DNA of 64,000 nucleotides from a phage. The stretch lies in the sequence record PZ452584.1. One strand, given 5' to 3'. The notes below the pieces were generated by a model. The model searched no databases, was not told the origin of the DNA, and worked only from the letters and a program-made list of their open reading frames with translations. Shown one piece after another: positions 1,830 to 63,775 of the stretch. Each line of letters opens with the position of its first letter. Position 1 is the first letter of the stretch. A program made the position numbers and the translations under genes.

Positions 1830-1859
1830 ATACTATCACAAAGGAACCGTACTGTAAAC
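1830..1859 (-). promoter_or_regulatory. T4-type early promoter (-35 GTTTAC, 18-bp spacer, -10 TAGTAT)
   Basis: gtaaac at 1854-1859 and atacta at 1830-1835 on plus strand. Confidence 0.5.
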
Positions 1860-3219: not shown

Positions 3220-3249
3220 CGTTTTTCCTTTTTGTTAACAGATGAATTA

Positions 3250-5002: not shown

Positions 5003-5032
5003 ATAATATCACAACTCTACCGTAAAGTAAAC
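5003..5032 (-). promoter_or_regulatory. T4-type early promoter (GTTTAC / TATTAT)
   Basis: gtaaac 5027-5032, ataata 5003-5008; -10 sits in loop of inverted repeat GGTAGAG..CTCTACC. Confidence 0.5.
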
Positions 5033-8308: not shown

Positions 8309-8338
8309 ACTATAACACAACACGAGGGACTTGTAAAC
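8309..8338 (-). promoter_or_regulatory. T4-type early promoter upstream of alc (GTTTAC / TATAGT)
   Basis: gtaaac 8333-8338, actata 8309-8314. Confidence 0.55.
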
Positions 8339-9956: not shown

Positions 9957-11135
9957 TTAAAAGTATTTTTTAAAACTCATCATAACTTTATCATCAACAT
10001 CATTATCAATCTGTGCAACAAGGTAAGATGACAGTTCTACTTCTTGTGGCGCGGATTGAACATTATCAGAATTAAGATATTCACGAATCCAAGGATATGG
10101 ATGTTTAACCGGAGCATCGGTAATTGGGCATGGAAGACCACACTGTTTCATACGAGATACAGTTAAGTAATCAATAAAGCTCCACATGCTATTTGTATTT
10201 AATCCAGGAACATCGCCATCTTTAAATAAATGAACTGCCCAATCTTTTTCTTGGCGGTTAACTTCCATGAAAATATCAACTGCTTCTTGTTCACACTCTT
10301 GAGCAATTTTAACCCATTCATCACCATCAGTGCCAAGTTGAAGTTGACGAATAATATATTGTGTGCCTTTAAGGTGAAGCTGTTCATCACGTGCAATGAA
10401 CTTCATAATCTTGGCATTACCTTCCATGATTTCCATGTTCTTATGGAAGTTAAAGGTACATGCGAAAGATACATAAAAACGAATAGCTTCCAATGCGTTG
10501 ATTACATGCAAACAGAGGTAAAGAGATTTCATTAAAGCACGTTTAGCTTCGGCTTCTTGTTTAATAGCTCTGTTTAAACGAAAGTCGGCATCAGGAGATT
10601 CTTTAGCTAGTTCTACAAATTCTTTAGCATTTTCCCATTCACGGGTTTTAATCAGAACATCATCATAATAACGTCCAATTGATTCAGCACGTTTCATAAT
10701 AGCTTCATCTAATACAATCTCATCAAATACCTTTGACGGATCAGTATAAAGATTTCGCATGATATGAGTATATGAACGACTATGAATAGTTTCACTAAAA
10801 GTCCATGTAGCAACCCATGTATCAAGGCTTGGGTCTGAAATTAATGACATAAGTACAGCAGACGGCGCACGACCCTGAATGCTATCCAAAAGTGATTGAT
10901 ACTTCAGATTATTAGTAAAAATATTCTGCTGATACTGAGGAAGCTTATTAAACTGTGCAGCATCCATCATTAAGTTTACTTCTTCCGGGCGCCAGAAAAA
11001 TGATAAGGACTTTTCTGTGAGTTCTTCAAATACTCGATGCCGTTGAATATCATAACGCGCAATACCAAGACCTGAACCAAAAAACATAGGTTCTTTTAAA
11101 ACATCAACTGGGTTTGTATTAAAAACTGTGCTCAT
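9957..11135 (-). CDS. nrdB: ribonucleotide reductase small subunit (aerobic, class Ia)
   Basis: 392-aa continuous ORF; diiron R2 fold expected; no intron interruption. Confidence 0.9.
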   Translation of the reverse strand: MSTVFNTNPVDVLKEPMFFGSGLGIARYDIQRHRVFEELTEKSLSFFWRPEEVNLMMDAAQFNKLPQYQQNIFTNNLKYQSLLDSIQGRAPSAVLMSLISDPSLDTWVATWTFSETIHSRSYTHIMRNLYTDPSKVFDEIVLDEAIMKRAESIGRYYDDVLIKTREWENAKEFVELAKESPDADFRLNRAIKQEAEAKRALMKSLYLCLHVINALEAIRFYVSFACTFNFHKNMEIMEGNAKIMKFIARDEQLHLKGTQYIIRQLQLGTDGDEWVKIAQECEQEAVDIFMEVNRQEKDWAVHLFKDGDVPGLNTNSMWSFIDYLTVSRMKQCGLPCPITDAPVKHPYPWIREYLNSDNVQSAPQEVELSSYLVAQIDNDVDDKVMMSFKKYF

Positions 11136-11186
11136 AAATTTTCCGCTTAGTTAATAGTTAGTGACTCGTCCGTGAGTCAAATTATA

Positions 11187-13451
11187 TCATAATTTACAGG
11201 ATGAACAATCTTCAGCTTTTGGAGTTTCTATTTCATAATCATCAGTACCAGAACCATCACGGGTATTATGATAATAGAAATTTTTAATGCCATAATACCA
11301 TCCGTATAGCATATCATCAATCATTATTGACATTGGAACCTTTCCTTTTGGAAAAATCTGTGGGTCATAATATGTATTCGCCGAAGCTGATTGACATACC
11401 CATTTCAGCATAATAGCTACCTGCGTAAGATAAGGTTTATTACCTTTCTTAGCTAATTTCCATGTATAATCATATAGGTCTATGTTATGTTCAATATTGG
11501 GCACGACTTGATTAAAGGAACCCTCTTTTGATTCTTTAACAGAGACTGGTCCACGTGGAGGCTCGATACCGTTTGTACTGTTAGAAACTTGGGAAGATGA
11601 CTCACATGGCATAAGTGCTGATAGTGTGCTATTACGGATGCCAAAGAGCTTAAGGTCTTCCCGCAGCGACGACCAGTCACAAACGTATTTTGGAGCTGCG
11701 ATTTGGTCAATCTTTTTATTGTACCAGTCGATAGGTAATTCGCCTCGAGACCAACGAGTGTCTGAATAATATTCGCAAGGTCCTTTTTCTTTGGCGAGCT
11801 TAATGGATGCTTTAATGAGTCCATACTGTAATCTCTCAAATAGTTCATGTGTTAAATCGTTAGCATCTTCATAAGAAGCAAAGTTACTTGCCAGCCAAGC
11901 TGCATAGTTAGTAACACCTACACCAAGGTTACGACGCTTTTTAGCTTTTTCTGCTTCAGGAACTGGATATCCTTGGTAATCCAAAAGATTATCAAGAGCA
12001 CGAACTTGAACTTCTGCCAATTCATTAATTTTATCTTGGTCTTGCCAATCGAAGTTATCCAACACAAATGCAGATAACGTGCACAATCCAATTTCAGCAT
12101 CAGGGCTATTCACATCATTTGTTGGAATAGCAATTTCACAACACAAGTTACTCTGACGAATAGGTGCCTTTTCACGAATAAACGGAGTATAGTTATTCGT
12201 ATTATCAATGAACTGCACATAAATCCTTGCTGTTCCTGAGCGTTCAGTCATGAGCAATTCAAATAGTTCACGGGCTTTAATACGCTTTTTACGAATATTA
12301 GGGTCTTTTTCTGCTGCTTCGTATAATTCACGGAAACGGTCTTGGTCTTTAAAATAAGAATAATAAAGCTCACCACCCATTTCATGCGGACTGAACAAAG
12401 TAATGTAATCATTCTTTCCGAATCGTTCCATCATCAAATCATTCAGCTGAACACCATAATCCATATGACGAATGCGGTTTTCTTCTACGCCTTTGTTATT
12501 TTTCAAAACGAGAAGATTTTCAACTTCCAAATGCCAAATAGGATAATAAGCAGTAGCAGCGCCGCCACGAATTCCACCCTGTGAACATGATTTAACTGCG
12601 GTCTGAAAATGTTTCCAAAAAGGAATAACACCAGTATGGCGTACTTCACCCATGCCAATCTTAGAACCTTCGGCACGAATCATACCAACGTTAATACCAA
12701 TTCCAGCGCGTTTAGAGATATATTCAACAATTGAAGCGGAAGCCTTATTGATAGACTTTAATGAATCACCTGCCTCAATAACAACGCATGAACTAAACTG
12801 TCGAGTCGGAGTACGACAACCAGCCATAATAGGAGTTGGCAATGAAATCTGTCGAGTAGATACTGCTTCATAAAAACGGATAACATGTTTTAATCTATCA
12901 ACAGGTTCATCTTGATGCAGTGCCATTCCAATAGTCATAAATGCAAACTGTGGAGTTTCATAAATTTGACCAGTGGTTTTATCTTTGACTAGATATTTTT
13001 CTTTTAATTGCATCGCCCCGGAATAAGTAAATTCCATATCCCGCTCGTGCTTAATTTTTGATTCTAAAAATGTAATTTCTTCTGCTGAATATTTTGACAA
13101 TAATTCAGGGTCATATTTACCTTCATTTACACAGTAAGAAATATGGTCAATAAATGAACGTGGTTCATACTGCCCATAAACATGCTTACGAAGAGCAAAC
13201 ATTAAACAGCGTGCAGCTACATATTGATAATCAGGTTCTTCAACCGAAATAGAATTCGCAGCGGCCTTAATGACAATAGTCTGAATATCATCAGTTGTCA
13301 TTCCATCACGGAGATATGATTTAATATTTTCATATAATTCATAAGGATCTACTGATGTTCCCTCAGCTGCCCAAGATAAAACTTTAATAATTTTTTGTGG
13401 ATCAAAGCTCTGAGAAACACCACTACTTTTGATAACATTAATTAATTGCAT
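11187..13451 (-). CDS. nrdA: ribonucleotide reductase large subunit
   Basis: 754-aa ORF with ATP-cone N-terminus and active-site NxCxE region (SNLCCEIAIP); same length as T4 NrdA. Confidence 0.93.
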   Translation of the reverse strand: MQLINVIKSSGVSQSFDPQKIIKVLSWAAEGTSVDPYELYENIKSYLRDGMTTDDIQTIVIKAAANSISVEEPDYQYVAARCLMFALRKHVYGQYEPRSFIDHISYCVNEGKYDPELLSKYSAEEITFLESKIKHERDMEFTYSGAMQLKEKYLVKDKTTGQIYETPQFAFMTIGMALHQDEPVDRLKHVIRFYEAVSTRQISLPTPIMAGCRTPTRQFSSCVVIEAGDSLKSINKASASIVEYISKRAGIGINVGMIRAEGSKIGMGEVRHTGVIPFWKHFQTAVKSCSQGGIRGGAATAYYPIWHLEVENLLVLKNNKGVEENRIRHMDYGVQLNDLMMERFGKNDYITLFSPHEMGGELYYSYFKDQDRFRELYEAAEKDPNIRKKRIKARELFELLMTERSGTARIYVQFIDNTNNYTPFIREKAPIRQSNLCCEIAIPTNDVNSPDAEIGLCTLSAFVLDNFDWQDQDKINELAEVQVRALDNLLDYQGYPVPEAEKAKKRRNLGVGVTNYAAWLASNFASYEDANDLTHELFERLQYGLIKASIKLAKEKGPCEYYSDTRWSRGELPIDWYNKKIDQIAAPKYVCDWSSLREDLKLFGIRNSTLSALMPCESSSQVSNSTNGIEPPRGPVSVKESKEGSFNQVVPNIEHNIDLYDYTWKLAKKGNKPYLTQVAIMLKWVCQSASANTYYDPQIFPKGKVPMSIMIDDMLYGWYYGIKNFYYHNTRDGSGTDDYEIETPKAEDCSSCKL

Positions 13452-14008: not shown

Positions 14009-14869
14009 TTATACCGCCATTTTTCCTTTCAAGACACCGTAGGACTGATAATCTTTGAGAACGAAATCTTTAGGCCTGAGTTTAAGAACATATTCCAATT
14101 GTTCTTTAGTAGAAAGATAACGGAATTTATAAGGCAATCCGCCTATTACCAGTTCACAAAGCTCTTTAGGTTCACGACGCAAAATTTCTTTGCATTGTTC
14201 TACATGATTCATATAGATATGAGTATTACCACCAGAAAATATCAAATCTCCTGGAGTAAGATTACACATCTTAGCTATAATATGAACTAACGCAGCATAT
14301 GATGCAATATTAAATGGAAGGCCGAGAAAAACATCTACTGATCGTTGATACCACTGCAAATCCAAATAGCCATTACGCACATTAAACTGATAGAACATAT
14401 GACAAGGCGGTAATGCCATCTGCTTGATTTCAGCTGGATTCCATGCTGAAACGATTTGACGTCGATCAGTTGGTAATTTTTTAATACGATCAATAACTTC
14501 TACAATTTGGTCTACACCGCCAAAATCACGCCACTGTTTTCCATAAATTGGACCAAGTTCACCGCTATGGTATCCTAAATCTTTTGCTTGATTTTCGTAA
14601 TTTTCATCCCAGACTGTTTTGCCTTGGATTAACGAATCATGCTGAATTAATCGTAAATCATTGACATTTGTGCTTCCTGATAAAAACCATATTAACTCAG
14701 CAATGCAAGCTTTCCAAGCGAGCTTTTTAGTTGTTACCGCAGGAAAACCTTTAGTTAAATCCCAACGCAATTTAGTACCGAACAAAGCAATTGTTCCTGT
14801 GCCTGTTCGGTCATCGGTTTCATAACCATTTTCAAAAATGTCTTTAATTAAATCTTGGTATTGTTTCAT
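14009..14869 (-). CDS. td: thymidylate synthase (intron-less)
   Basis: 286-aa uninterrupted ORF with TS active-site region (LPPCHMFYQF); same length as spliced T4 Td. Confidence 0.93.
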   Translation of the reverse strand: MKQYQDLIKDIFENGYETDDRTGTGTIALFGTKLRWDLTKGFPAVTTKKLAWKACIAELIWFLSGSTNVNDLRLIQHDSLIQGKTVWDENYENQAKDLGYHSGELGPIYGKQWRDFGGVDQIVEVIDRIKKLPTDRRQIVSAWNPAEIKQMALPPCHMFYQFNVRNGYLDLQWYQRSVDVFLGLPFNIASYAALVHIIAKMCNLTPGDLIFSGGNTHIYMNHVEQCKEILRREPKELCELVIGGLPYKFRYLSTKEQLEYVLKLRPKDFVLKDYQSYGVLKGKMAV

Positions 14870-16120: not shown

Positions 16121-16363
16121 TTAAACAGACTTTTTCACAATTTTCCAATCAGCTTTAAACTGCTCGACGTCAGAGTGATGAATCCAGAAACCAGATGAGC
16201 TACCATCTTCATAAAGAGGACAACCATCGCACTCATCTTTCCAACCCATCGCGCATAAAGTTTCTTCAGCTTTTTCCAGAGCTTCTGGATTGTTACCCTG
16301 GATTGTAAAGTACCATTTGCCTTTAACTTCTGAATCTTTGATGCTCTCACGTTGTAATTTCAT
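16121..16363 (-). CDS. hypothetical protein (80 aa)
   Basis: Track ORF; CDGC motif. Confidence 0.45.
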   Translation of the reverse strand: MKLQRESIKDSEVKGKWYFTIQGNNPEALEKAEETLCAMGWKDECDGCPLYEDGSSSGFWIHHSDVEQFKADWKIVKKSV

Positions 16364-16440
16364 TTTATTCTCCAGTGTTTTAGTTGTTAACTCAGTATGG
16401 GACCATTATGTCATAGCCCCATTTGGTTGTACACTACTTT

Positions 16441-16812
16441 TTACTGAATATTAAAAGTTGCTTTAATCAGTGCAATGACTTCTGCCGCATTTTTATGATT
16501 TACCTGCACATGAATGGTTTGGGTATCAATATCAGGAGCATCGCCATCAACTTCCAGGAAGTGACAGAATTCCCATTCAGCGAGTTCAAAGTACTCGTCA
16601 GCATTATCATAAACAGACTTCAGGATGGTGCCATCTTTCATTTCAACTTTTTCGACAAAATAATCACCGTCGATATAACACATGTCCAGGACTTTAAAGG
16701 AACTGCCATGTTGTTCCATAATCTTAATCATGCGCGAATTGTTATCAGGACTACCAGCGATGAATTGTTTTTTGGCAGCAGGGTCTAATACGTAAAATTT
16801 ACCAATTTCCAT
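16441..16812 (-). CDS. hypothetical protein (123 aa), paralog of 16871-17251
   Basis: Track ORF trimmed to ATG 16812 with GAGGAAAA RBS; early promoter 16842-16871 upstream. Confidence 0.5.
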   Translation of the reverse strand: MEIGKFYVLDPAAKKQFIAGSPDNNSRMIKIMEQHGSSFKVLDMCYIDGDYFVEKVEMKDGTILKSVYDNADEYFELAEWEFCHFLEVDGDAPDIDTQTIHVQVNHKNAAEVIALIKATFNIQ

Positions 16813-16841
16813 TTTATTTTCCTCATGTAGTTGATAGGGTA

Positions 16842-16871
16842 ATAGTATCACACTACTACCCTACTGTAAAC
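16842..16871 (-). promoter_or_regulatory. T4-type early promoter (GTTTAC / TACTAT)
   Basis: gtaaac 16866-16871, atagta 16842-16847; flanked by TAGGGTA/TACCCTA inverted repeat. Confidence 0.55.
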
Positions 16872-17251
16872 TACTTTTTGAAAGTTTTTCGCAAAAGTTC
16901 AATGATTTCATCTACATTGTTTTCATCTACAATGCAGTGAATTTTTGTTACGCCAGAAACCTTGTCTTTGACTTCAACTTCTTCAGAAGTCGGTTCTTTA
17001 TACTCACGAAAACAATGAAATTCGTCTTCGCAAATTTCTAAAAGTCTATCTTTGAGGTAAAAATGCTTTCCATTTGCGCATTCAATGTGTTTTACTGCTT
17101 TATATCCATTAGCGACGGAAACTTCTTTAACTTCAAACCATCCGCCATTATCTCGAATCGCTTTAACTATTGATGAATTAGAACGTGGGCTATAATTAAT
17201 AAATGTATCAATAAGTCTTGGAACAAGCTCATACTTTTTACCGGTATACAT
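16871..17251 (-). CDS. hypothetical protein (126 aa), paralog of 16441-16812
   Basis: Shared architecture with neighbour (G-K-x-Y-x-L N-terminus; C-terminal IH..V...N..E.I.L...TF). Confidence 0.5.
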   Translation of the reverse strand: MYTGKKYELVPRLIDTFINYSPRSNSSIVKAIRDNGGWFEVKEVSVANGYKAVKHIECANGKHFYLKDRLLEICEDEFHCFREYKEPTSEEVEVKDKVSGVTKIHCIVDENNVDEIIELLRKTFKK

Positions 17252-17296
17252 TACGTTTTCCTCATTTTAATAGGGGCTGTAATAGCCCCTCGATAA

Positions 17297-17527
17297 TTAT
17301 TGTTCAATCAGTCCCATGTAAAATTCTGCGTCTTCAGAATCCATGCCATCACAATATTCATTAGCCATAAAGCGGGTAAGGTCTTCAAGAGGACCTTCAA
17401 TGACAATAGAAAAATTGCAATAATTGGGATCATCATGAATACTTGTGATACTAAGTTCAGGATAACGATTACGAATAATTTCTTCGATATATTCAAAATC
17501 AACGATGTCAATATCAACTTTAGCCAT
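17297..17527 (-). CDS. hypothetical acidic protein (76 aa)
   Basis: Trimmed to ATG 17527 with AAAGAGGAAAA RBS; promoter cassette 17571-17600 upstream. Confidence 0.5.
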
Positions 17528-17570
17528 ATTATTTTCCTCTTTAATCATCAGCAGTATTGCCGATAGTTGT

Positions 17571-17600
17571 ATAGTACCATGGAAGAACAGGGATGTAAAC
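17571..17600 (-). promoter_or_regulatory. T4-type early promoter, member of repeated promoter-leader cassette
   Basis: gtaaac 17595-17600, atagta 17571-17576; upstream A/T tract. Confidence 0.6.
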
Positions 17601-17620
17601 CGTTTTGTGAAAAAATTTTA

Positions 17621-17648
17621 AAATAAAAAAAGGGACCTCTAGGGTCCC
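17621..17648 (-). terminator. intrinsic terminator downstream of gene 32
   Basis: gggacc..ggtccc hairpin 17632-17648 with A-run 17621-17631 on plus strand. Confidence 0.6.
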
Positions 17649-17671
17649 CGATTAATTAGTAATATAATCTA

Positions 17672-18580
17672 TTAAAGGTCATTCAAAAGGTCATCCAGGT
17701 CCGTGTCATCAGCACTAGATGAACTGCCAGAGCTTGAGCTCATAAAATCATCTTCAGTTTTTGTATTGAAGTCATCAACATTGAATGCATCCAAATCATC
17801 AGCAACTTTATCAGCTTTCTTAGCAGCAGTTGCAGCGGCACCGCCCATCACAGCAGTTCCCATAACTTGACCGAATTTAGTATTCAGTTCTTCAAACGAT
17901 TTGAATTTATCTTTAGAAGTCATTTCAGAAAGGTCAACCATTTGTTCGAACAGTTCTTTCTGGAAAGATTCATCGTCAATGTTTGGAATCGCAGATTGAT
18001 TCAGGAATTTAGATTCGTCGTAGTTACTAAATCCGGAAACTTGTTTAACTTTCAGTACAAAGTTAGCACCTTCCCACGGACAAGTTACATCAACCGGAGT
18101 TTCACCCATTTCAACATCAACTGCAATCATTGCGTTGATTTTATCCCAGATTTTCTTACCGAAACGGTATTTAAATACTTTACCTTCATTTTCTGGAGCA
18201 GCTGGGTCTTTTACTACAAGAATGTTAGCCCAGTAAGAAGTTTTACGTTTAACAAGACCGTACTCTTTATTGTCAGTGTTGTACAAATCATTTTTACTGA
18301 TGTACTGACATACTGGGCAAGAATCGTAATCACCATGGGTAGATGAACATGTTTCAATATACCATTTACCATTTTTCTTGAAACCGTGATTTACAAGAAT
18401 TGCGAATGGTGCTTGTTCATCATTTTTAGACGGAAGAAAACGAATTACTGCTTGACCGTTACCCGCATTATCGAGTTTCAGTTTCCACTCGCCTTTATCT
18501 TCAGAAGAAAAACCACCTTTATTTCCAGCCAGTTTAGCCATTTGTGCAGCGAGTTCAGCAGTAGATTTACGTTTAAACAT
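17672..18580 (-). CDS. 32: gp32 single-stranded DNA-binding protein
   Basis: 302-aa [20 protein letters not shown]... with acidic C-terminal tail; matches T4 gp32. Confidence 0.95.
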
Positions 18581-18663
18581 TTTTATTTCCTTTTTAATTT
18601 AATTAACAGTTGGTGCTATGACGATGTATGACCTCATAGCTGGTCAGTGAGATAATTATAATC
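18581..18663 (-). promoter_or_regulatory. gene 32 5' leader (candidate autoregulatory translational operator)
   Basis: Unusually long A/U-rich leader ...uuaauuaaauuaaaaaggaaauaaaaAUG preceding gene 32. Confidence 0.45.
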
Positions 18664-18671
18664 TATTTATA
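18664..18671 (-). promoter_or_regulatory. late promoter TATAAATA upstream of gene 32
   Basis: tatttata on plus strand about 85 nt upstream of gene 32 start, inside gene 59 3' end. Confidence 0.5.
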
Positions 18672-18679
18672 ATAAGCAA

Positions 18680-20841: not shown

Positions 20842-20903
20842 ATGAACCTCGTTCAATTAGTGAGATTTCTATTATATACCATCCAAATCTTAAAGTAAAC
20901 AAG

Positions 20904-20945: not shown

Positions 20946-23900
20946 ATGGCCGAGATTAAAAGAAAGTTCAGAGCAGAAGACGGTCTGGACGCAGGTGGTG
21001 ATAAAATAATCAACGTAGCTTTAGCTGATCGTGCCGTAGGAACTGACGGTGTTAACGTTGATTACTTAATTCAAGAAAACACAGTTCAACAATACGATCC
21101 AACTCGTGGATATTTAAAAGATTTTGTAATCATTTATGATAACCGCTTTTGGGCTGCTATAAATGATATTCCGAAACCAGCAGGAGCTTTTAATAGCGTA
21201 CGCTGGAGAGCATTACGTACTGATGCAAACTGGACAACTGTTTCATCAGGACCTTATCAATTAAAGTCAGGCGAATCAATTTCAGTTGATACTGCAGCCG
21301 GTAATGACATTACATTTACTTTACCATCTACCCCAATTGACGGTGATACTATCGTTCTCCAAGATATTGGAGGAAAACCTGGAGTTAATCAAGTTTTAAT
21401 TACAGCTCCGGTACAAAGCATTGTAAATTTTAGAGGTCAGCAAGTACGTTCAGTACTAATGACTCATCCAAAATCACAGATAGTTTTAATTTTTAGTAAT
21501 CGTCTGTGGCAAATGTATGTCGCTGATTATAGTAGAGAAGCTGTAGTTGTAACGCCTGCGAGTCTCTATCAGGCTCAATCAAACGATTTTATCGTACGTA
21601 GATTTACTTCTGCTGCACCAATTAATGTTAAACTTCCAAGATTTGCTAATCATGGCGATATTATTAATTTCGTTGATTTAGATAAATTAAATCCTCTTTA
21701 TCACACAATTGTTACTACATATGATGAAACAACTTCAGTACAAGAAGTTGGAACTCATTCCATTGAAGGTCGTACATCGATTGACGGTTTCTTGATGTTT
21801 GATGATAATGAGAAATTGTGGAGATTGTTTGACGGGGATAGTAAAGCGCGTTTACGCATTATAACGACTAATTCTAATATTCGTCCAAATGAAGAAGTTA
21901 TGGTATTTGGTGCGAATAACGGAACAGCTCAGACAATTGAACTTCAGCTTCCGACTGATATTTCTGTTGGTGATACTGTCAAAATTTCCATGAATTACAT
22001 GAGAAAAGGACAAACGGTTAAAATCAAAGCTGCAGGTGAAGATAAAATTGCTTCTTCAGTTCAATTGCTGCAATTCCCAAAACGCTCAGAATATCCACCT
22101 GAAGCTGAGTGGGTTACAGTTCAAGAATTAGTTTTTAACGGTGAAACTAATTATGTTCCAGTTTTGGAGCTTGCTTATATTGAAGATTCTGATGGAAAAT
22201 ATTGGGTTGTACAGCAAAACGTTCCAACTGTAGAAAGAGTAGATTCTTTAAATGATTCTACTAGAGCAAGATTAGGGGTAATTGCTTTAGCTACGCAAGC
22301 TCAAGCTAATGCTGATTTAGAAAATTCTCCACAAAAAGAATTGGCAATTACTCCAGAAACGTTAGCTAATCGTACTGCTACAGAAACTCGTAGAGGTATT
22401 GCAAGAATAGCAACTACTGCTCAAGTTAACCAGGATACTACATTCTCTTTTGCTGATGACCTTATCATTACTCCTAAAAAGCTGAATGAAAGAACGGCTA
22501 CTGAAACTCGTAGAGGTATTGCTGAAATTGCTACACAGCAAGAAACTAATACAGGAACCGATGATACTACAATCATTACTCCTAAAAAGCTTCAAGCTCG
22601 TCAAGGTTCTGAATCATTATCTGGTATTGTAACCTTTGTATCTACTGCAGGTGCTACTCCAGCTTCTAGCCGTGAATTAAATGGTACGAATGTTTATAAT
22701 AAAAACACTAATAATTTAGTTGTTTCGCCTAAAGCTTTGGATCAGTATAAAGCTACTCCAACGCAGCAAGGTGCAGTAATTTTAGCAGTTGAAAGTGAAG
22801 TAATTGCTGGACAAAGTCAGGAAGGATGGGCAAATGCTGTTGTAACGCCAGAAACGTTACATAAAAAGACATCAACTGATGCAAGAATTGGTTTAATTGA
22901 AATTGCTACACAAAGTGAAGTTAATACAGGAACTGACTATACACGTGCAGTCACTCCTAAAACTTTAAATGACCGTAGAGCAACTGAAAGTTTAAGTGGT
23001 ATAGCTGAAATTGCTACGCAAGTTGAATTCGACGCAGGCGTCGACGATACTCGTATCTCTACACCATTAAAAATTAAAACCAGATTTAATAGTACTGATC
23101 GTACTTCTGTTGTTGCTCTATCTGGATTAGTTGAATCAGGAACTCTCTGGGACCATTATACACTTAATATTCTTGAAGCAAATGAGACACAGCGTGGTAC
23201 ACTTCGTGTAGCTACACAGGTCGAAGCTGCTGCAGGAACACTAGATAATGTTTTAATAACTCCTAAAAAGCTTTTAGGTACTAAATCTACCGAATCGCAA
23301 GAAGGTGTTATTAAAGTTGCAACTCAGTCTGAAGCTGTGGCTGGAACGTCAGCAAATACTGCTATATCTCCAAAAAATTTAAAATGGATTGTGCAGAGTG
23401 AACCTACCTGGGCAGCTACTACTGCGATAAGAGGTTTTGTTAAAACTTCATCTGGTTCAATTACATTCGTTGGTAATGATACAGTCGGTTCTACTCAAGA
23501 TTTAGAACTGTATGAGAAAAATAGCTATGCAGTATCACCATATGAATTAAACCGTGTATTAGCAAATTATCTGCCGTTAAAAGCAAAAGCTGTAGATAGT
23601 AATTTATTGGATGGTCTAGATTCATCTCAGTTCATTCGTAGGGATATTGCACAGACGGTTAATGGTTCACTAACCTTAACCCAACAAACGAATCTGAGTG
23701 CCCCTCTTGTATCATCTAGTACTGGTGAATTTGGTGGTTCATTGGCCGCTAATAGAACATTTACCATCCGTAATACAGGAGCCCCGACCAGTATCGTTTT
23801 CGAAAAAGGTCCTGCATCTGGGGCAAATCCTGCACAGTCAATGAGTATTCGTGTATGGGGTAACCAATTTGGCGACGGTAGTGATACAACACGTTCTACT

Positions 23901-29600: not shown

Positions 29601-29988
29601 AATTCAACAGAATGACAGCTATTCAACATATGTCCGCGATGTTTATGTCCGCTCTGATATTCGTGTTAAAAAGAACCTCGTTAAATTTGAAAATGCTTCT
29701 GAGAAGCTTTCTAAAATTAACGGTTACACTTATATGCAGAAGCGAGGCCTAGATGAAGAAGGTAATCAGAAATGGGAACCTAACGCCGGTTTGATAGCTC
29801 AAGAAGTTCAAGCTATTTTACCAGAATTAGTTGAAGGTGACCCGGATGGTGAAGCTTTACTTCGTTTGAACTATAATGGTATAATTGGTTTAAATACAGC
29901 TGCAATCAATGAGCATACTGCAGAAATTGCAGAACTTAAGTCAGAGATTGAAGAGCTTAAAAAATTAGTTAAATCATTGTTAAAATAA
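26680..29988 (+). CDS. 37: gp37 long tail fibre distal subunit with C-terminal intramolecular-chaperone-like domain
   Basis: 1102-aa ORF following gene 36; N-terminus conserved with T-even gp37; C-terminus DIRVKKNL...coiled-coil resembles self-cleaving chaperone domains. Confidence 0.88.
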
Positions 29989-29993
29989 TAAGA

Positions 29994-30007
29994 GGGGCTT
30001 CGGCCCC
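29994..30007 (+). other. GGGGC-UUCG-GCCCC hairpin between genes 37 and 38
   Basis: No T-run; directly followed by gene 38 RBS, so probably a stabilising or processing hairpin. Confidence 0.4.
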
Positions 30008-30019
30008 TTGGAGGTTTAT

Positions 30020-30793: not shown

Positions 30794-30823
30794 TTTGAAT
30801 AAATATCCTTAAAAGGAGGGTCT

Positions 30824-33572: not shown

Positions 33573-34208
33573 TCACAGTTCAGATGCTACAGTGATTACA
33601 GCTTCAATGTTTTCTGCCGAGCGTTTAATGTCAAGATATACATTACCATTTTTAGCGATTTTACATGACATACCGATATCAGTAAATTTCTGAATATGAT
33701 GTTCCATCATTTTGTATCCAAAAATTCGCATATTTCCATTATTGTTAATTTCAAAATTACGAATTCCGTGAGTGCGTTTTTCTAAAATAGCGAGATAGTT
33801 ACTACGGTAAGTTTCAACTTTTTTAAGAACAAATCCATTTTCATCTAAAAGTTTTAGCATGAGGTCTTTATCTTCTTCCATATCGGAAGTAATCTCGCGA
33901 GCTTTACGAGTTGCTCGTTTTTTCAGCAGTTCCGGAGCATTTTCCTGTGCGTATAAAGTTGCTGCATTTGAAATAATATCCTGAGCTTCACCAGTAATGA
34001 TTAATCCATCACCAGATTTCTCCACCAGGCCTTTTTTAATCAATACCCCAATATTACTATTAACTACTGCATTACCTAAATCTGGATGCACCTCACGAAC
34101 TTCTGCAGCTGTAATGAAATCTTTCTTAGCAATAGTAATTAAAATCGCAGCAGTTTTTTCATTCAGAACATCGTTAGAAGCTTTGATGATGTAAGTTACT
34201 TTAGACAT
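33573..34208 (-). CDS. motA: MotA middle-transcription activator
   Basis: 211-aa ORF MSKVTYIIKASNDVLNEKTAAILITIAKKDFITAAEV...; matches T4 MotA; promoter cassette upstream. Confidence 0.92.
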   Translation of the reverse strand: MSKVTYIIKASNDVLNEKTAAILITIAKKDFITAAEVREVHPDLGNAVVNSNIGVLIKKGLVEKSGDGLIITGEAQDIISNAATLYAQENAPELLKKRATRKAREITSDMEEDKDLMLKLLDENGFVLKKVETYRSNYLAILEKRTHGIRNFEINNNGNMRIFGYKMMEHHIQKFTDIGMSCKIAKNGNVYLDIKRSAENIEAVITVASEL

Positions 34209-34249
34209 TTTCTAATCTCCGTAATTCTGTATCAGTAGTTGATAGTTGT

Positions 34250-34279
34250 ATAGTACCACAGTATGCTTTGGTTGTAAAC
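34250..34279 (-). promoter_or_regulatory. T4-type early promoter upstream of motA (cassette copy)
   Basis: gtaaac 34274-34279, atagta 34250-34255. Confidence 0.6.
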
Positions 34280-34303
34280 CGTTTTGTGAAAAAAATTTTG
34301 AAA

Positions 34304-34330
34304 TAAAAAAGGGAGAGCCTCGGCTCTCCC
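34304..34330 (-). terminator. intrinsic terminator downstream of gene 52 / small peptide gene
   Basis: gggagagcc..ggctctccc hairpin 34311-34330 with A-run on plus strand. Confidence 0.6.
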
Positions 34331-34335
34331 TAAAA

Positions 34336-37398: not shown

Positions 37399-37512
37399 TC
37401 ACATAAATCCAAAATAAGCGTTTAATACATCAATCATTAAAACGATTGGGAATATACTCAAAACTATTAGTATTATAACTACATTCCATATAGCTTTAAT
37501 AATCTTTTTCAT
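37399..37512 (-). CDS. small hydrophobic peptide (37 aa)
   Basis: ATG 37512 with GGAGGAA RBS directly downstream of promoter cassette 37541-37570. Confidence 0.4.
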   Translation of the reverse strand: MKKIIKAIWNVVIILIVLSIFPIVLMIDVLNAYFGFM

Positions 37513-37540
37513 TTTCTGTTCCTCCATAGTTGATAGGGTA

Positions 37541-37570
37541 ATAGTACCACGGAGGAACAGTCTTGTAAAC
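37541..37570 (-). promoter_or_regulatory. T4-type early promoter (cassette copy)
   Basis: gtaaac 37565-37570, atagta 37541-37546. Confidence 0.55.
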
Positions 37571-37577
37571 CACTTTT

Positions 37578-37676
37578 TTAAAAATATTCGTAATAAATGT
37601 GAATACCAATCACTACCGCCGAAACTTGCGCAACCCACCACGCACAAGCAATAAGTACAGAATTCAAAATTTTCAT
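37578..37676 (-). CDS. small hydrophobic peptide (32 aa), unlisted
   Basis: MKILNSVLIACAWWVAQVSAVVIGIHIYYEYF; GAGG upstream; start overlaps stop of next peptide (ATGA). Confidence 0.3.
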   Translation of the reverse strand: MKILNSVLIACAWWVAQVSAVVIGIHIYYEYF

Positions 37677-37787: not shown

Positions 37788-37994
37788 TCAATAATCCGCT
37801 AAAAGATCGACGATTGCATCACGAAGACACTTATTCGCAATACGTTTAAGAGCAATTTCAGTTTCTGGAGCATTTTGAATAATCATTGAATTCAATTCAG
37901 CCTCAGCAAACTGAAGTTCTTTAACTAATTCAGCTTTATATTTTCCTTGCCCTTTCTTAGCTTTTGCTCGTTTTAATTCAGCTGTAGTAAACAT
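37788..37994 (-). CDS. hypothetical protein (68 aa)
   Basis: Trimmed to ATG 37994 with GGAG RBS downstream of promoter cassette 38029-38058. Confidence 0.5.
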   Translation of the reverse strand: MFTTAELKRAKAKKGQGKYKAELVKELQFAEAELNSMIIQNAPETEIALKRIANKCLRDAIVDLLADY

Positions 37995-38028
37995 TTTATT
38001 CTCCAAATCCGTATCAGTTGATAGTTGT

Positions 38029-38058
38029 ATAGTACCACGGTCCTTGTGGTATGTAAAC
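38029..38058 (-). promoter_or_regulatory. T4-type early promoter (cassette copy)
   Basis: gtaaac 38053-38058, atagta 38029-38034. Confidence 0.6.
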
Positions 38059-38074
38059 TGTTTTGTGAAAATTT

Positions 38075-38632
38075 TTAAATGGAAAGATACCATCCGTTGT
38101 AGTTGCTTTTTCTTACAACCTTACGAAGGTCTTCTCTATCACCGATGAACTTCGGAGTGTACTGGATGACACCTGGATGAATTTCTTTAGTGTTGAATAT
38201 AATTATACAGTCAGCGACTTGATGATTCAGAATGGGCCCTAGATTTATTCCAGAGCCATATGGATACTCTCCGCTGCATCCGGTTGTTACCGAAATCCAA
38301 CGCGAGTCAGTTTGATGTGTTTTGACTTCTACACGAAGCCCACAGTATTTTGGATGCGCCAATACATCCCATGCATATGTATATGGGTCATTAACATCCT
38401 CTTGGCCTTTGTTAACATACCCACTCAACCAATCTGCTACCACATACTCGGCATACACAGCAATACGACATCTTTCGATAACTTCTGCCTTATCCTGATT
38501 TGGATTTTGTTTTAAAGAGTATCTTGCAGTATCAGCAATTTTGGCCTTCATTTCACTAGTCAAGTCACTGTTAGATAGGGTAAATAACGGAATCTGAAAT
38601 AGTCTCTGCAAACCCGGATTCGTTTTCTGCAT
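38075..38632 (-). CDS. denB: endonuclease IV
   Basis: 185-aa ORF, same length and position (between ndd region and rIIB) as T4 DenB. Confidence 0.7.
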   Translation of the reverse strand: MQKTNPGLQRLFQIPLFTLSNSDLTSEMKAKIADTARYSLKQNPNQDKAEVIERCRIAVYAEYVVADWLSGYVNKGQEDVNDPYTYAWDVLAHPKYCGLRVEVKTHQTDSRWISVTTGCSGEYPYGSGINLGPILNHQVADCIIIFNTKEIHPGVIQYTPKFIGDREDLRKVVRKSNYNGWYLSI

Positions 38633-45313: not shown

Positions 45314-45583
45314 TTAATTGAACAGTGGAGCGATGCGTTTCAGAAGAGCAGCAGCACCTTTGGCAAATTTTACATCATGAAAAACAGTTTCTTCTTCCGT
45401 TACAACACGAGCTTTAATGTTTTCACAATCCCAATTTTTGCGAACAATCTTCAAAAGCTGCAGTAAATCTTTACATTCAGCAATATCGATAACACATCCA
45501 CGAGAATCTTCCATTATCGCACGATAACCGTAAGCCATACCATAATCGTTGAAAGATTGCTCGATGATAATTAAGTTTTCCAT
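45314..45583 (-). CDS. hypothetical protein (89 aa)
   Basis: Trimmed to ATG 45583 with GGAGAA RBS in promoter-leader cassette. Confidence 0.5.
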   Translation of the reverse strand: MENLIIIEQSFNDYGMAYGYRAIMEDSRGCVIDIAECKDLLQLLKIVRKNWDCENIKARVVTEEETVFHDVKFAKGAAALLKRIAPLFN

Positions 45584-45626
45584 TTTATTCTCCAAGTTGT
45601 TTTCTGTATCAGTAGTTGATATTGAT

Positions 45627-45678
45627 ATAGTACCATAATCAACTACTGATGTATATAGTTTTATGAAAAATTTTAAAC
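45627..45678 (-). promoter_or_regulatory. degenerate copy of promoter-leader cassette with 13-bp inverted repeat
   Basis: atagta 45627-45632 but -35 replaced (GTTTAA at 45673-45678); inverted repeat 45608-45620 / 45638-45650. Confidence 0.3.
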
Positions 45679-45679
45679 T

Positions 45680-46168
45680 TTATGCATAGAGAGCATTGCT
45701 ATAGTGTTTAATCCAACTTTCAGGAATGACTTTGTATGTTCCTAAAAATACCACGTTGTACAACTTAACGCCATCTTCTACCCATTGATCGGTAATGTAT
45801 CCACACATAGCGCGAGTATAAACAGCCTTTCCATCATCTTTGATAAATTTAAATTCGCAAGGAGCAATGAACTTAATAGCTTGACCGAGTTTCCACTTAA
45901 AGTCTACACCTACATGCGAAGTATCAATCGTTTCAATTCCTTTAGCGGGAACAGCTTTCAAAAACGCAGATTCAAGAAATTTCGCGCGAACATAACCAAA
46001 CTGAGGTTTAGACTTTCCATCTTTAGGAATGATACGAACTTTTACTTCAGAATCTTCATCTTTAACACCATGTTTAAGCTGAATGCTTACAATTTCAACC
46101 AATTTTCCTGCTGCTTTAGAGCGGGATTTATCAGATACACGAGCTAATTCACCAATATTAATAATCAT
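45680..46168 (-). CDS. hypothetical protein (162 aa; MotB-sized), paralog of 46245-46784
   Basis: C-terminal motif YITDQWVEDGVKLYNVVF shared with neighbour; size matches my recollection of T4 MotB but unconfirmed. Confidence 0.5.
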   Translation of the reverse strand: MIINIGELARVSDKSRSKAAGKLVEIVSIQLKHGVKDEDSEVKVRIIPKDGKSKPQFGYVRAKFLESAFLKAVPAKGIETIDTSHVGVDFKWKLGQAIKFIAPCEFKFIKDDGKAVYTRAMCGYITDQWVEDGVKLYNVVFLGTYKVIPESWIKHYSNALYA

Positions 46169-54358: not shown

Positions 54359-54385
54359 GGTGTTCTCCTCTATAAGATATTTTTA

Positions 54386-54415
54386 TTATACCATACTCAT
54401 TTTGGAAAGTAAACC
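54386..54415 (-). promoter_or_regulatory. T4-type early promoter (GTTTAC / TATAAT)
   Basis: gtaaac 54410-54415, attata 54386-54391. Confidence 0.55.
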
Positions 54416-54423
54416 ATAAAATG

Positions 54424-54447
54424 AAAAAGGACTCCCGAAGGAGTCCT
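54424..54447 (-). terminator. intrinsic terminator downstream of soc
   Basis: ggactcc cgaa ggagtcc at 54430-54447 (same hairpin as 1890-1907) preceded by A-run. Confidence 0.65.
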
Positions 54448-54454
54448 TGAATTA

Positions 54455-54700
54455 TTAACCACCAGTTACTTTCCACAAATCTTCGTTTGCAGCAATCCAT
54501 TCAGTACGCTGATTTTCTTCATATACAGTAGTATATGCTGCTTTTTCTGAAGGGAACGTCTGGTAATGAGCACCAGAAATTTTGTGAACGTCAGAATAAA
54601 GAGGGAAAGCTACTGAAATTTCCTTTCCTTCAATTTTCTTATTTCCATCTAATTTCTGCTCAAATGTTTTGATATTAACATAACCGCGAGTACTAGCCAT
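54455..54700 (-). CDS. soc: Soc small outer capsid protein
   Basis: 81-aa ORF MASTRGYVNIKTFEQKLDGNKKIEGKEISVAFPLYSDVHKISGAHYQTF...; late promoter upstream, terminator downstream. Confidence 0.9.
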   Translation of the reverse strand: MASTRGYVNIKTFEQKLDGNKKIEGKEISVAFPLYSDVHKISGAHYQTFPSEKAAYTTVYEENQRTEWIAANEDLWKVTGG

Positions 54701-63391: not shown

Positions 63392-63628
63392 TCAAATGCA
63401 AGTAGTAATTACTCCAGTAGTGCTTATGCAGGTATTACCCATTTGCACACCTAAAGATCCATTTGTATTCACATGAAGATTATCATCAATTTTAACTGAT
63501 ATTTTACCATTAGTGTGAATAACGGTGCTAGATTCAATCACAGGTTGAGTATCATTTTCAACACTAACAAATGGAACTGCTGCTAATGCAACTAAACAAA
63601 CTGCTAAGCATCCCATAACAATTTTCAT
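63392..63628 (-). CDS. putative secreted protein (78 aa)
   Basis: Trimmed to ATG 63628 with GGAGAA RBS in promoter-leader cassette; MKIVMGCLAVCLVALAAVPFV signal peptide. Confidence 0.5.
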   Translation of the reverse strand: MKIVMGCLAVCLVALAAVPFVSVENDTQPVIESSTVIHTNGKISVKIDDNLHVNTNGSLGVQMGNTCISTTGVITTCI

Positions 63629-63665
63629 TTTATTCTCCAAATCTGTATCAGTAGTTGATAGTTGT

Positions 63666-63695
63666 ATAGTACCATGGAAGAACAGTCTTGTAAAC
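63666..63695 (-). promoter_or_regulatory. T4-type early promoter (cassette copy)
   Basis: gtaaac 63690-63695, atagta 63666-63671. Confidence 0.6.
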
Positions 63696-63775
63696 AGTTT
63701 TGTGAAAATTTTTTAGGGAATTCTAAAGGTCCAGAATCATCTGTTTTTCATAAGTATAGATTTATATTACTTGTA

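Follow-up and report, generated by a model that had tools for sequence, protein, structure and literature searches.

The early (Pe) promoters of bacteriophage T4 are defined by GTTTAC at -36 to -31, an A-rich UP element at -40 to -44 and a GT-rich or TGn stretch above -12, together with A at -11 and T at -7 (PMC1524935, PMC2988021). This consensus goes back to Liebig & Rueger 1989 and Miller et al. 2003 in the form in which PMC2988021 and PMC1524935 summarize them, and both it and the promoter names are used here via such secondary sources. The T4 orthologues of the promoters described below become active immediately upon infection, with the unmodified host sigma-70 polymerase and without phage protein synthesis (PMC2988021, PMC6024815), and for two Pe promoters the T4 coordinates 27,044 (Pe26.4) and 150,727 (Pe148.6, with support from primer extension) have been given (PMC6024815). 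The target consensus of RegB/S1 endoribonuclease is likewise available, with cleavage of the T4 motA, motB and motB.2 mRNAs (Durand et al. 2006, PMC1702504), the motA leader being a good RegB substrate (PMC1702504). PeSL cassettes of the T4/PST type share the promoter consensus TTTACW-N17-TAYWAT (PMC4122927).

The 64,000-nt stretch of phage DNA analysed here (hereafter the window) is a Tequatrovirus (T4-like) genome with 95-98% identity to many T4-like coliphages, and its minus strand is the early-gene coding strand. A repeat search returned a family of six copies at 17562-17620, 34241-34299, 37532-37590, 38020-38078, 45618-45676 and 63657-63715. Every copy lies on the minus strand, and identity to the 17.6-kb copy (the reference) is 69-90% across 59 nt. 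These are the same six loci (17.56, 34.23, 37.52, 38.01, 45.60 and 63.64 kb) listed in a preliminary description of this DNA, which wrote the motif in its functional orientation and overlooked that it lies on the minus strand of the window. A scan of the window for GTTTAC-N18-TACTATAC with at most two mismatches gave 10 matches, all on the minus strand, compared with 0.60 expected, a count reached in 0/100 shuffles; the repetition is thus real and far above chance. In a multiple alignment, conservation runs for ~85-100 bp from the A/T tract (around -60) down to the ATG, with unrelated flanks on both sides. Gene duplication was rejected because the sequence after the ATG is unrelated between copies and the products fall into different PHROG/Pfam families; the repeat unit is a cassette. 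All six cassettes have T4 orthologues, located upstream of frd.3, motA, ndd.4, ndd.6, the ORF preceding cef, and imm.1.

Each cassette presents, in order, an A/T-rich UP tract, GTTTAC (-36 to -31), a 14-nt spacer, TGn followed by TACTAT, and a leader of 22-37 nt that ends in a Shine-Dalgarno (SD) sequence and ATG. Little or no variation is seen in the blocks TTTTCACAAAAC-GTTTACA and TGGTACTAT-ACAACTATC: TGGTACTAT, 14 nt beyond GTTTACA, is unchanged in 6/6 copies, GTTTACA occurs in five of the six, and TTTTCACAAAAC also occurs in five, with TTTTAAAAAAGT in its place in the ndd.4 copy. Information content exceeds background in the UP and A/T-tract positions (consensus ...aaaa.ttttcA.aaA.t.GTTTAC), and an independent promoter scan returned TTTACA-17-TACTAT with TG upstream. 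Calling the copies 'nearly identical' was nevertheless too strong, as the 14-nt spacers are of unrelated types although the blocks that flank them hardly vary. Three other features ascribed to the family need correction in detail: GTTTAC is found in five copies but is ATATAC at 45.6 kb, the leader end GGAG(A/G)A is replaced at 17.6 kb by GAGGAAAATAAT-ATG, and the downstream gene, described as small, is motA (211 aa) at 34.2 kb. The five leaders that carry GGAG fold no better than shuffled sequences (z -0.2 to +1.4), a small hairpin (-7.6 kcal/mol) lies at the 5' end of the 17.6-kb leader, and an Rfam search of the window gave no match.

The first copy, the frd.3 early promoter and leader (17525..17625, minus strand; located by alignment and position weight matrix (PWM) scan; T4 orthologue with G at 146875), comprises an UP tract at 17601-17625, GTTTACA at 17594-17600, the e.8-type spacer TCCCTGTTCTTCCA at 17580-17593, TGGTACTAT at 17571-17579, a predicted +1 at 17564, the SD GAGGAA and the ATG at 17525-17527. 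The ORF downstream belongs to Pfam Phage_FRD3, and in a relative (GenBank MZ726795) the orthologous site is already labelled 'T4 early promoter'. The intrinsic terminator hairpin of gene 32 (GGGGACCCTAGAGGTCCCT, then a T-run; 17631..17649, minus strand; dG -12.0 kcal/mol) abuts this copy, and together they make up a predicted full terminator-promoter (PeSL-type) unit. A second strong terminator hairpin (AGGGAGAGCCGAGGCTCTCCCT, then a T-run; 34310..34331, minus strand; dG -17.6 kcal/mol) lies directly upstream of the motA early promoter and leader (34206..34304, minus strand; alignment; T4 orthologue with G at 163673), in which GTTTACA occupies 34273-34279, TGGTACTAT 34250-34258, the predicted +1 34243 and the ATG 34206-34208, with the SD GGAGAUUAGAA; from the -35 element through the ATG this copy is identical to T4, with two mismatches in the UP tract. 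At ndd.4 (37 aa), the early promoter and leader (37510..37595, minus strand; alignment; T4 orthologue with G at 166807) contain GTTTACA at 37564-37570, TGGTACTAT at 37541-37549, a predicted +1 at 37534, the SD GGAGGA and the ATG at 37510-37512.

The remaining three copies each precede an ORF inserted or retained between promoter and T4 gene. The early promoter and leader that serve ndd.6 in T4 (37992..38083, minus strand; T4 orthologue with G at 167086; phrog_4535), with GTTTACA at 38052-38058, a predicted +1 at 38022, GGAGAATAAAA at 37994-38004 and the ATG at 37992-37994, here serve an inserted 68-aa ORF (37788-37994), with a repeat of TAAAATG between it and ndd.6. The 45.6-kb copy (45581..45681, minus strand; T4 orthologue with G at 6630; phrog_3720) has a weakened, variant -35 element (ATATACA, 45650-45656), followed by TGGTACTAT at 45627-45635, a predicted +1 at 45620, GGAGAATAAAA at 45583-45593 and the ATG (45581-45583) of an 89-aa ORF that in T4 has lost 200 bp and persists only as a remnant, upstream of cef. 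The imm.1 promoter (63626..63720, minus strand), orthologue of T4 Pe26.4 (T4 G at 27080, +1 at 27,044), contains GTTTACA at 63689-63695, TGGTACTAT at 63666-63674, a predicted +1 at 63659, GGAGAATAAAA at 63628-63638 and the ATG at 63626-63628, and here precedes an inserted 78-aa ORF (63392-63628) and then imm.1.

An iterated PWM scan widened the family to 20 minus-strand sites, 19 of them with GT[TG]TAC, against one marginal plus-strand site. One extra site (42308-42336) from the repeat and promoter scans brings the number beyond the six copies to 15, making the earlier figure of at least 11 further loci conservative. All 20 PWM sites lie 26-53 nt 5' of a minus-strand start codon with an SD, which bears out the proposal that the cassette supplies both promoter and ribosome-binding site (RBS), and they sit at T4 early genes (alc, asiA, motA, motB, modB, srd, dmd, sp, ndd.4, frd.1-3 and others). 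The plus-strand match, at 45599, is treated as an artefact: it mirrors the 45.6-kb copy, its score is close to the threshold, and no ORF downstream makes sense of it. A control scan for plain sigma-70 hexamers found 84 against 76.3 expected and 78 against 79.1, not above chance, and is uninformative for a genome as AT-rich as this; the signal is carried by the extended T4-type pattern only.

All of these looser members are on the minus strand. At frd.1 (16361..16434; PWM scan) the promoter has GTGTACA and its leader ends in the exact RegB/S1 consensus, GGAGAATAAAA-TG; at frd.2 (16810..16871; motif, repeat and PWM scans) it reads GTTTACA-N14-TGATACTAT with the leader TACCCTATCAACTAC...GAGGAAAATAAAATG, and the frd.2 allele that it drives has only 34% identity to T4 frd.2. 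The early promoter serving 30.8 in T4 (1830..1859; repeat and PWM scans) has a terminator hairpin directly upstream (1888-1909), and with 30.7 and 30.8 deleted here it drives the 30.6 homologue. The cd.2 early promoter (5003..5032; motif and PWM scans) is the orthologue of 'Pe133295', named in the T4 RefSeq record, and the rnh promoter (20871..20900) that of T4 Pe148.6 (T4 G at 150763, +1 at 150,727). The mrh.2 early promoter (54385..54455, G at 54414) abuts a terminator hairpin (dG -14.8 kcal/mol) in a PeSL-type arrangement, and the scans also located the alc early promoter at 8309..8338. Further sites, each spanning G-29 to G, have the G of GTTTAC at 31814 (asiA), 42337 (rIIA.1), 46242 (motB), 47344 (motB.2), 50979 (srd), 52315 (modB), 57473 (sp) and 57976 (dmd).

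Taken together, the cassettes are almost certainly T4-type early (Pe) sigma-70 promoters with their 5' leaders, forming a high-identity subfamily of ~21 in the window. The hallmarks of T4 early promoters had been noted before, and comparison with the published definition and consensus shows the elements to fit position for position, with T4 orthologues at all six copies. The expectation that transcripts begin 7-8 nt downstream of the -10 element agrees with the T4 orthologues of two sites, in which the predicted +1, 7 nt past the -10 element, coincides with 27,044 and 150,727; as neither coordinate falls on a gene boundary, we read both as sites of transcription initiation. The literature searched contained no genome-wide T4 start-site map by RNA-seq or Cappable-seq. 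By extension from T4 work on polymerase contacts, timing and actual start sites, unmodified E. coli sigma-70 RNA polymerase would bind four cassette elements at once right after DNA injection, the alpha-CTDs contacting the A/T-rich UP tract (AAAATTTTCACAAAAC), sigma region 4 the TTTACA of the -35 element, sigma region 3 the TGn of the extended -10 and, across a 17-bp spacer, sigma region 2 the TACTAT. Transcription would start at the A 7 nt after the -10 element, on the minus strand at the six predicted positions given above, and the unstructured leader with its SD would provide transcription and translation signals for any ORF placed behind the cassette.

Two other identities for the repeat carry hardly any probability. 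If the cassettes were MotA/AsiA-dependent middle promoters or gp55 late promoters, the sigma-70 -10 element would be accounted for, since middle promoters share it and about half of them have TGn; but the six copies contain neither a MotA box ((a/t)(a/t)(a/t)TGCTTtA centred at -30) nor a late TATAAATA box, and in place of the former have a -35-type GTTTACA with a 17-bp spacer and an UP element. Moreover, middle transcription requires motA and asiA, two genes that sites of the cassette family drive, and we regard this assignment as extremely improbable. A dispersed intergenic repeat of ~90 bp and the 5' hairpin of the 17.6-kb leader might suggest a transposon-like (MITE) element, a small RNA or a structured cis-regulatory RNA. 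However, the leaders fold like shuffles in 5/6 cases, conservation ends at the ATG and above the UP tract, the alignment reveals no TIR-like similarity between cassette ends, and the copies share a single orientation and occupy T4-orthologous positions, leaving such elements a negligible chance. A structured leader RNA or riboswitch in particular was rejected on the unremarkable fold z-scores and the lack of an Rfam match.

In the copies at 38.0, 45.6 and 63.6 kb, the leader 3' end, GGAGAATAAAA, is an exact match to the published RegB/S1 target. The 11-nt consensus GGAGRAYARAA, single-stranded and usually located at an early-gene SD, has four matches in the window compared with 0.35 expected (37994-38004, 45583-45593, 63628-63638 and, at frd.1, 16363-16373; motif scan), all on the minus strand and each forming the SD of a promoter-proximal ORF; their GGAG lies at 38001-38004, 45590-45593, 63635-63638 and 16370-16373, respectively. 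The motA leader has one mismatch to the consensus, yet has the same sequence as the T4 site. Two copies do not conform, at 17.6 kb (GAGGAA, no GGAG) and 37.5 kb (a poor match), and the predicted RegB reading covers only about half of the copies. By analogy with T4, GGAGAAUAAAA at the SD of three copies and frd.1 would be an optimal target of RegB and ribosomal protein S1, and the cassette would also programme inactivation of its mRNA a few minutes later; regB itself lies outside the window (T4 62,279-62,740). The preliminary description did not mention the RegB/S1 identity of this leader end.

Between the window and T4, the frd.3 cassette is identical in UP tract, -35, -10 and leader, whereas its spacer agrees at only 4/14 positions. 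Among relatives this spacer is of three types, each like a different paralogous cassette: an e.8 type in the window, T6, ASO78A and 235Ecol030PP; an nrdC.10 type in T4 (14/14 to T4 nrdC.10) and ECO4 (12/14); and a motA type in JB75 (13/14). Spacer sequences among these types include TCCCTGTTCTTCCA (e.8-type), AGCATAAAGCTTTA and ACCAAAGCATACTG; the e.8-type cassette came to light in an exact IMG/VR scan with the -10 plus leader core, which gave 8 loci, too few to survey the diversity of the genes downstream. The imm.1 cassette of RB14 carries both spacer and leader of the e.8 type, segments such as CTGATACAGAAAACAACTT travelling with the spacer. The three types at frd.3 indicate probable short-patch gene conversion, in agreement with the published PeSL shuffling model. 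The likeness of the six copies would then reflect selection on the promoter blocks together with repeated short-patch conversion between dispersed copies, in which the invariant blocks flanking the spacer may serve as homology arms.

Pure convergence, in which each copy was selected alone towards an optimal early promoter and RBS, gains from the fact that the invariant blocks are the functional elements (UP, -35, TGn/-10, the +1 region and SD) and that, according to reviews, conservation in T4 early promoters extends to additional positions. We nevertheless consider it very unlikely: the spacer is unconserved across the family, yet 13-14/14 positions are shared by non-orthologous copies while orthologous ones differ at 10/14 (a rough estimate by hand puts the chance of a match of at least 13/14 at ~1e-6 per pair), and in RB14 imm.1 the accompanying leader segments moved as well. 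The 14-nt spacer might instead be the meaningful unit, an exchangeable module of which a few types (counted here as e.8, nrdC.10, motA and imm.1/ndd.4) are shuttled between early promoters so that sister-phage orthologues differ, with possible tuning of expression. Spacer exchange itself appears well supported by the comparisons among relatives; any functional meaning of the spacer type is speculation, and as a full account the module is improbable. If spacer type did tune promoter strength or the response to Alt ADP-ribosylation, early expression could be re-tuned rapidly; in published work, Alt responsiveness is unexplained by the -35, TGn or -10 elements.

A stronger contender, possible although we lean against it, is that the cassettes are primarily PeSL mobile units, portable recombination sites whose similarity is kept for that role and not for promoter strength, and in which stem-loop, early promoter, SD and ATG would excise or insert accessory ORFs as mini-circles. 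In T4-type phages, the T4/PST pair among them, the PeSL model is already published, with mini-circle junctions mapped between the -10 element and the SD/ATG (PMC2839356, PMC4122927) and with a search for excision products made in RB49 and phi1, and the cassettes fit the T4/PST-type promoter consensus, followed by an SD and start codon. Terminator hairpins abut the 17.6- and 34.2-kb copies and the 1.86- and 54.4-kb sites; orf68 and orf78 are inserted between cassette and T4 gene and bounded by SD-ATG-end repeats; the frd.2 allele has been swapped exactly between two promoters; spacer types relocate between loci; and the ndd.4-ndd.6 region, for which Comeau et al. described a T4/PST exchange, contains a directly repeated pair at a distance of 488 bp, the 37.5- and 38.0-kb copies. 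This reading is, however, compatible with the promoter explanation and not an alternative to it, and the six cassettes are not actively moving, because all are at T4-orthologous positions. A strong upstream hairpin (dG <= -10 kcal/mol, the 5th percentile of background being -10.0 kcal/mol) is present at 2/6 copies (17.6 and 34.2 kb) and 6/21 sites, the rest being at background, and the insertion junctions show only 7-14 nt of SD/ATG microhomology, which a comparable SD at any T4 gene start would offer. Of 21 gaps between the window and T4, five touch a cassette compared with 1.2 expected under a uniform null (P ~0.005), but we set this enrichment aside because it vanishes with gene starts as the null: indel breakpoints fall at 4/16 cassette-bearing and 18/100 other gene starts (Fisher P=0.36, on crude ORF calls that recovered 16/20 cassette ATGs). 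The window gives no specific evidence that the cassettes drive gene gain or loss. The suggestion that they are recombination substrates has spacer swapping between paralogous copies and the published PeSL model in its favour, but not the breakpoint test with gene starts as the null.

The repeat is therefore best regarded as real but ordinary, a strong T4-type early promoter with leader and RBS that is already well known. Its discovery value is small: these are textbook T4 early promoters, a role of PeSL in shuffling has been published, and the GGAG leader end is a known RegB/S1 site. Two refinements are added here, namely the RegB/S1 match in three leaders and the three types of frd.3 spacer allele. 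The annotation gains 21 early promoters with predicted start sites, as well as a worked example of a promoter, an RBS and a predicted mRNA-inactivation signal in one cassette. With its three spacer alleles, frd.3 also makes a clear comparative example of gene conversion between dispersed promoters, one that could be extended genus-wide, with ~500 or more sequenced close relatives matching this region, to the rate of cassette homogenization or exchange in T4-like phages.

Among known systems, the closest are the T4 Pe promoters themselves (Pe26.4, the motA early promoter and Pe148.6), which have the same elements in the same register (UP, GTTTAC, 14 nt, gTGg, TAnnnT at -12 to -7), lie on the same strand and precede the same early genes, with ~95-100% identity between orthologues; nothing essential differs apart from the frd.3 spacer allele and the ORF that follows three copies (orf68, orf89 and orf78). 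The RegB/S1 sites of T4 are matched by an exact GGAGAAUAAAA at the SD of four promoter-proximal ORFs here and in a single-stranded context, and at motA and motB.2 the sequence is that of T4 sites with demonstrated cleavage; a good predicted site, however, is confined to part of the family, with frd.3 and ndd.4 lacking one. PeSL (Arbiol et al. 2010, PMC2839356; Comeau et al. 2014, PMC4122927) share the AT-rich tract, promoter, SD and ATG, sometimes a terminator, the location upstream of small accessory ORFs and the evidence of exchange between copies, but differ in that a strong stem-loop is the exception here and breakpoints are not enriched over gene starts. T7 A1, lambda PL and T5 P207 (strong phage sigma-70 promoters with UP elements) likewise outcompete host promoters through multiple near-consensus elements, whereas the T4 type has TTTACA in place of TTGACA at -35, additional conserved positions and, as far as T4 can be taken as a guide, stimulation in part by Alt ADP-ribosylation of the alpha subunit.

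The motif first described at 17560-17610 is present there, although the plus strand shows its reverse complement and the functional motif lies on the minus strand, where this 17.6-kb copy reads TTTTAAAATTTTTTCACAAAACG GTTTACA TCCCTGTTCTTCCA TGGTACTAT ACAACTATC...GAGGAAAATAAT ATG. A repeat search returned a six-member direct-repeat family in the window (17562-17620, 34241-34299, 37532-37590, 38020-38078, 45618-45676 and 63657-63715, all minus strand; 69-90% identity to the first copy), at the same six loci named in the preliminary description. When the six copies were aligned by MAFFT with 70-100 nt of flank per side, the conserved stretch started at an A/T tract around -60 and ended at the ATG, with unrelated sequence on both sides. 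Because conservation stops at these two points, the repeated unit is an intergenic cassette of ~85-100 bp and not a duplicated gene. The pattern GTTTAC-N18-TACTATAC, with up to two mismatches, has ten matches in the window, all on the minus strand, versus 0.6 expected, and none of 100 shuffled sequences gave ten. An iterated position-weight-matrix scan of the window yielded 20 minus-strand sites and one marginal mirror-image match on the plus strand; the repeat search and promoter scan add a 21st site at 42308-42336, so the earlier count of at least 11 further loci was right, and on the low side. Scanning the window for plain TTGACA/TATAAT worked no better than scanning shuffled sequence: only the extended pattern, not the plain sigma-70 hexamers, carries meaning.

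The window derives from a Tequatrovirus; it shares 95-98% identity with many T4-like coliphages and Shigella phages, and is collinear with ~127.7-168.9 kb and 0-27.4 kb of the T4 map, its early and middle genes lying on the minus strand. All 20 matrix sites have a minus-strand start codon with a Shine-Dalgarno (SD) sequence 26-53 nt beyond the end of the -10, in agreement with the proposal that the cassette provides both promoter and ribosome-binding site. The genes that follow, all on the minus strand, are the 30.6 homologue, cd.2, alc, frd.1, frd.2, frd.3, rnh, asiA, motA, ndd.4, orf68, orf89, motB, motB.2, srd, modB, mrh.2, sp, dmd and orf78, with the six high-identity copies preceding frd.3, motA, ndd.4, orf68 (then ndd.6), orf89 and orf78 (then imm.1). 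Among these are three small cassette-driven ORFs that T4 lacks or has only in truncated form: orf68 (37788-37994; phrog_4535), orf89 (45314-45583; phrog_3720), which survives in T4 as a remnant shortened by a 200-bp deletion between 8-nt repeats, and orf78 (63392-63628; phrog_4189), with, by eye, a hydrophobic, signal-peptide-like N-terminus containing Cys. The same matrix found the six cassettes again in T4 at orthologous places (G of GTTTAC at 146875, 163673, 166807, 167086, 6630 and 27080), and T4 has further family members beyond the region covered by the window, at e.8 (70696), nrdC.10 (55384), nrdC.9 (53943), trna.4 (73572) and ipI (73939).

The cassette architecture agrees at each position with the published T4 early promoter, defined by GTTTAC (-36 to -31), an A-rich tract resembling a UP element (-40 to -44), a GT-rich/TGn element 5' of -12, and the bases A (-11) and T (-7) (PMC1524935). 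T4 early promoters have been termed 'uber' UP/-35/TGn/-10 promoters, read by unmodified host sigma-70 polymerase and stimulated in part when Alt ADP-ribosylates the alpha subunit (PMC2988021). Read conventionally, the cassettes have hexamers TTTACA and TACTAT, a 17-bp spacer and TGG directly 5' of the -10. Window site 5032 corresponds to the T4 RefSeq note 'early promoter Pe133295 between cd.2 and cd.3'. In GenBank MZ726795, the orthologous frd.3 site bears the annotation 'similar to phage T4 early promoter GTTTAC(N14)gtggTAttaT' and is closely preceded by a rho-independent terminator. The +1 was predicted as the seventh base past TACTAT (G minus 36); in T4 it falls at 27,044 for the orthologue of window site 63695 and at 150,727 for that of 20900; Patterson-West et al. 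give these same map units for regions starting at Pe26.4 and Pe148.6, the latter with primer extension support at 1 min (PMC6024815). As neither coordinate coincides with a gene boundary, we read both as transcription start sites, an indirect check through T4 orthologues that favours 5' ends 7-8 nt past the -10. The repeat observation holds, with its strand and some details amended, and its interpretation as T4 early promoters is supported by this architecture and the six T4 orthologues.

The leaders of the six copies span 22-37 nt from +1 to ATG; four share AUCAACUACUGAUAC(A/G)G, the 38.0-kb leader is the same with a 3-nt deletion, and three end in UUGGAGAAUAAAAUG. According to Durand et al., the endoribonuclease RegB, with ribosomal protein S1, targets an 11-nt single-stranded sequence, usually an early-gene SD, with T4 consensus GGAGAAUAAAA and degenerate form GGAGRAYARAA (PMC1702504). 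The latter has four matches in the window versus 0.35 expected, all on the minus strand (16363-73, 37994-38004, 45583-93 and 63628-38), and each match forms the SD of a promoter-proximal ORF. At motA, the leader (GGAGAUUAGAA) does not differ from the T4 sequence, which is reported to be a good RegB substrate, and the GGAU of motB.2 is one of two GGAU sites cleaved in T4 (PMC1702504). The five GGAG-carrying leaders are unstructured (MFE -0.6 to -4.4 kcal/mol, z -0.2 to +1.4), as would suit the start of translation as well as recognition by RegB/S1. The 17.6-kb (GAGGAA) and 37.5-kb copies have no good RegB site, and regB itself lies outside the window. For about half of the copies, the cassette would plausibly carry three instructions together, for strong transcription straight away, for the start of translation and for functional inactivation of the mRNA later on.

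PeSL cassettes, as defined by Arbiol et al. and Comeau et al., comprise a stem-loop, early promoter, SD and ATG, with consensus TTTACW-N17-TAYWAT for T4/PST; recombination between copies was proposed to shuffle accessory ORFs, and crossovers were mapped between the -10 and the SD/ATG (PMC2839356, PMC4122927). In the window, strong hairpins adjoin promoters at 17631-17649, 34310-34331, 1888-1909 and 54.4 kb, and hairpins beyond the background 5th percentile occur at only two of the six copies and six of the 21 sites. Five of 21 homology gaps between window and T4 touch a cassette (P about 0.005 under a uniform null), and orf68 and orf78 are inserted between cassette and T4 gene, with repeats of the SD-ATG end on either side. 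With gene starts as the null, however, indel junctions show no significant excess at cassettes (4/16 versus 18/100, P = 0.36), and they are not counted as cassette-specific evidence.

The earlier suggestion that the repeats serve as recombination substrates, which these indels do not bear out, finds its footing in spacers exchanged between copies. At frd.3, window and T4 are essentially identical in the gene 32 terminator, UP, -35, TGn/-10 and locus-specific leader, whereas the 14-nt spacer between GTTTACA and the TGn/-10 block has only 4/14 positions in common. The window spacer, TCCCTGTTCTTCCA, is of the e.8 type (14/14 in three IMG/VR contigs, 13/14 to T4 e.8), the T4 spacer, AGCATAAAGCTTTA, equals that of T4 nrdC.10 (14/14; NC_000866, 146875 versus 55384), and the JB75 spacer, ACCAAAGCATACTA, matches motA at 13/14. 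Sequenced Tequatroviruses hence carry at least three frd.3 spacer types, each with a different paralogue (e.8, nrdC.10 or motA) as its identical or near-identical counterpart. The RB14 imm.1 cassette has an e.8-type spacer and leader; this promoter has undergone conversion to the e.8 type. Since spacers at frd.3 and imm.1 match paralogues while the spacer is otherwise unconserved in the family, we infer short-patch gene conversion between dispersed copies, with the invariant promoter blocks as homology; this comparison clearly supports the PeSL prediction of exchange between copies.

Pure convergence cannot account for identical spacers at non-orthologous sites, and the ORFs downstream of the copies are unrelated, which excludes gene duplication. 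A transposon-like nature of the repeat is unlikely: the copies all point in one direction and occupy positions orthologous to T4, and their alignment gives no hint of terminal inverted repeats. Middle or late promoters are excluded, since the copies contain neither a MotA box nor TATAAATA and these sites drive motA and asiA themselves; leader folding and Rfam exclude a structured RNA.

Several other differences from T4 were observed. In this phage nrdB and td lack their group I introns and, with them, the homing endonucleases I-TevIII and I-TevI; mobE with nrdB.1, segG and segF are also absent (jointly at 10459-10462, 14320-14328, 11135-11191, 18643-18679 and 54738-54769); an Rfam search of the whole window found no intron. 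At 42685-42737, ~1.1 kb of T4 (2806-3911), including 60.1 and mobA, is missing from the gene 60 translational-bypass element (T4 2803-2852) onwards, and the gene 39/60 topoisomerase subunit is probably unsplit and bypass-free in this phage. The DNA adenine methyltransferase gene dam is almost wholly absent at 55327-55348 (T4 16825-17725), its flanking homology blocks lying only ~20 nt apart. Segments 26846-30799 and 60919-61866, without nucleotide homology to T4, correspond to distal tail-fibre genes 37/38, which are host-range determinants, and the segA/beta-glucosyltransferase region. The frd.2 allele (16374-16809) encodes a protein just 34% identical to T4 frd.2, and the exact borders of the swapped segment are two early promoters (leader/ATG 16812, leader 16373). 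At 1776-1859, T4 30.7 and 30.8 are deleted directly downstream of an early promoter, and a UUCG-tetraloop hairpin (1792-1809) remains in the new leader of the 30.6 homologue. The coding region of gene 34 (proximal tail fibre) contains three diverged ~68-nt direct repeats (22347-23017; 65-74% identity).

Each aspect of the feature has been described before, be it as T4 early promoter, PeSL cassette or RegB/S1 site, and the swapping of frd.3 spacer alleles is a tidy illustration rather than a new principle.
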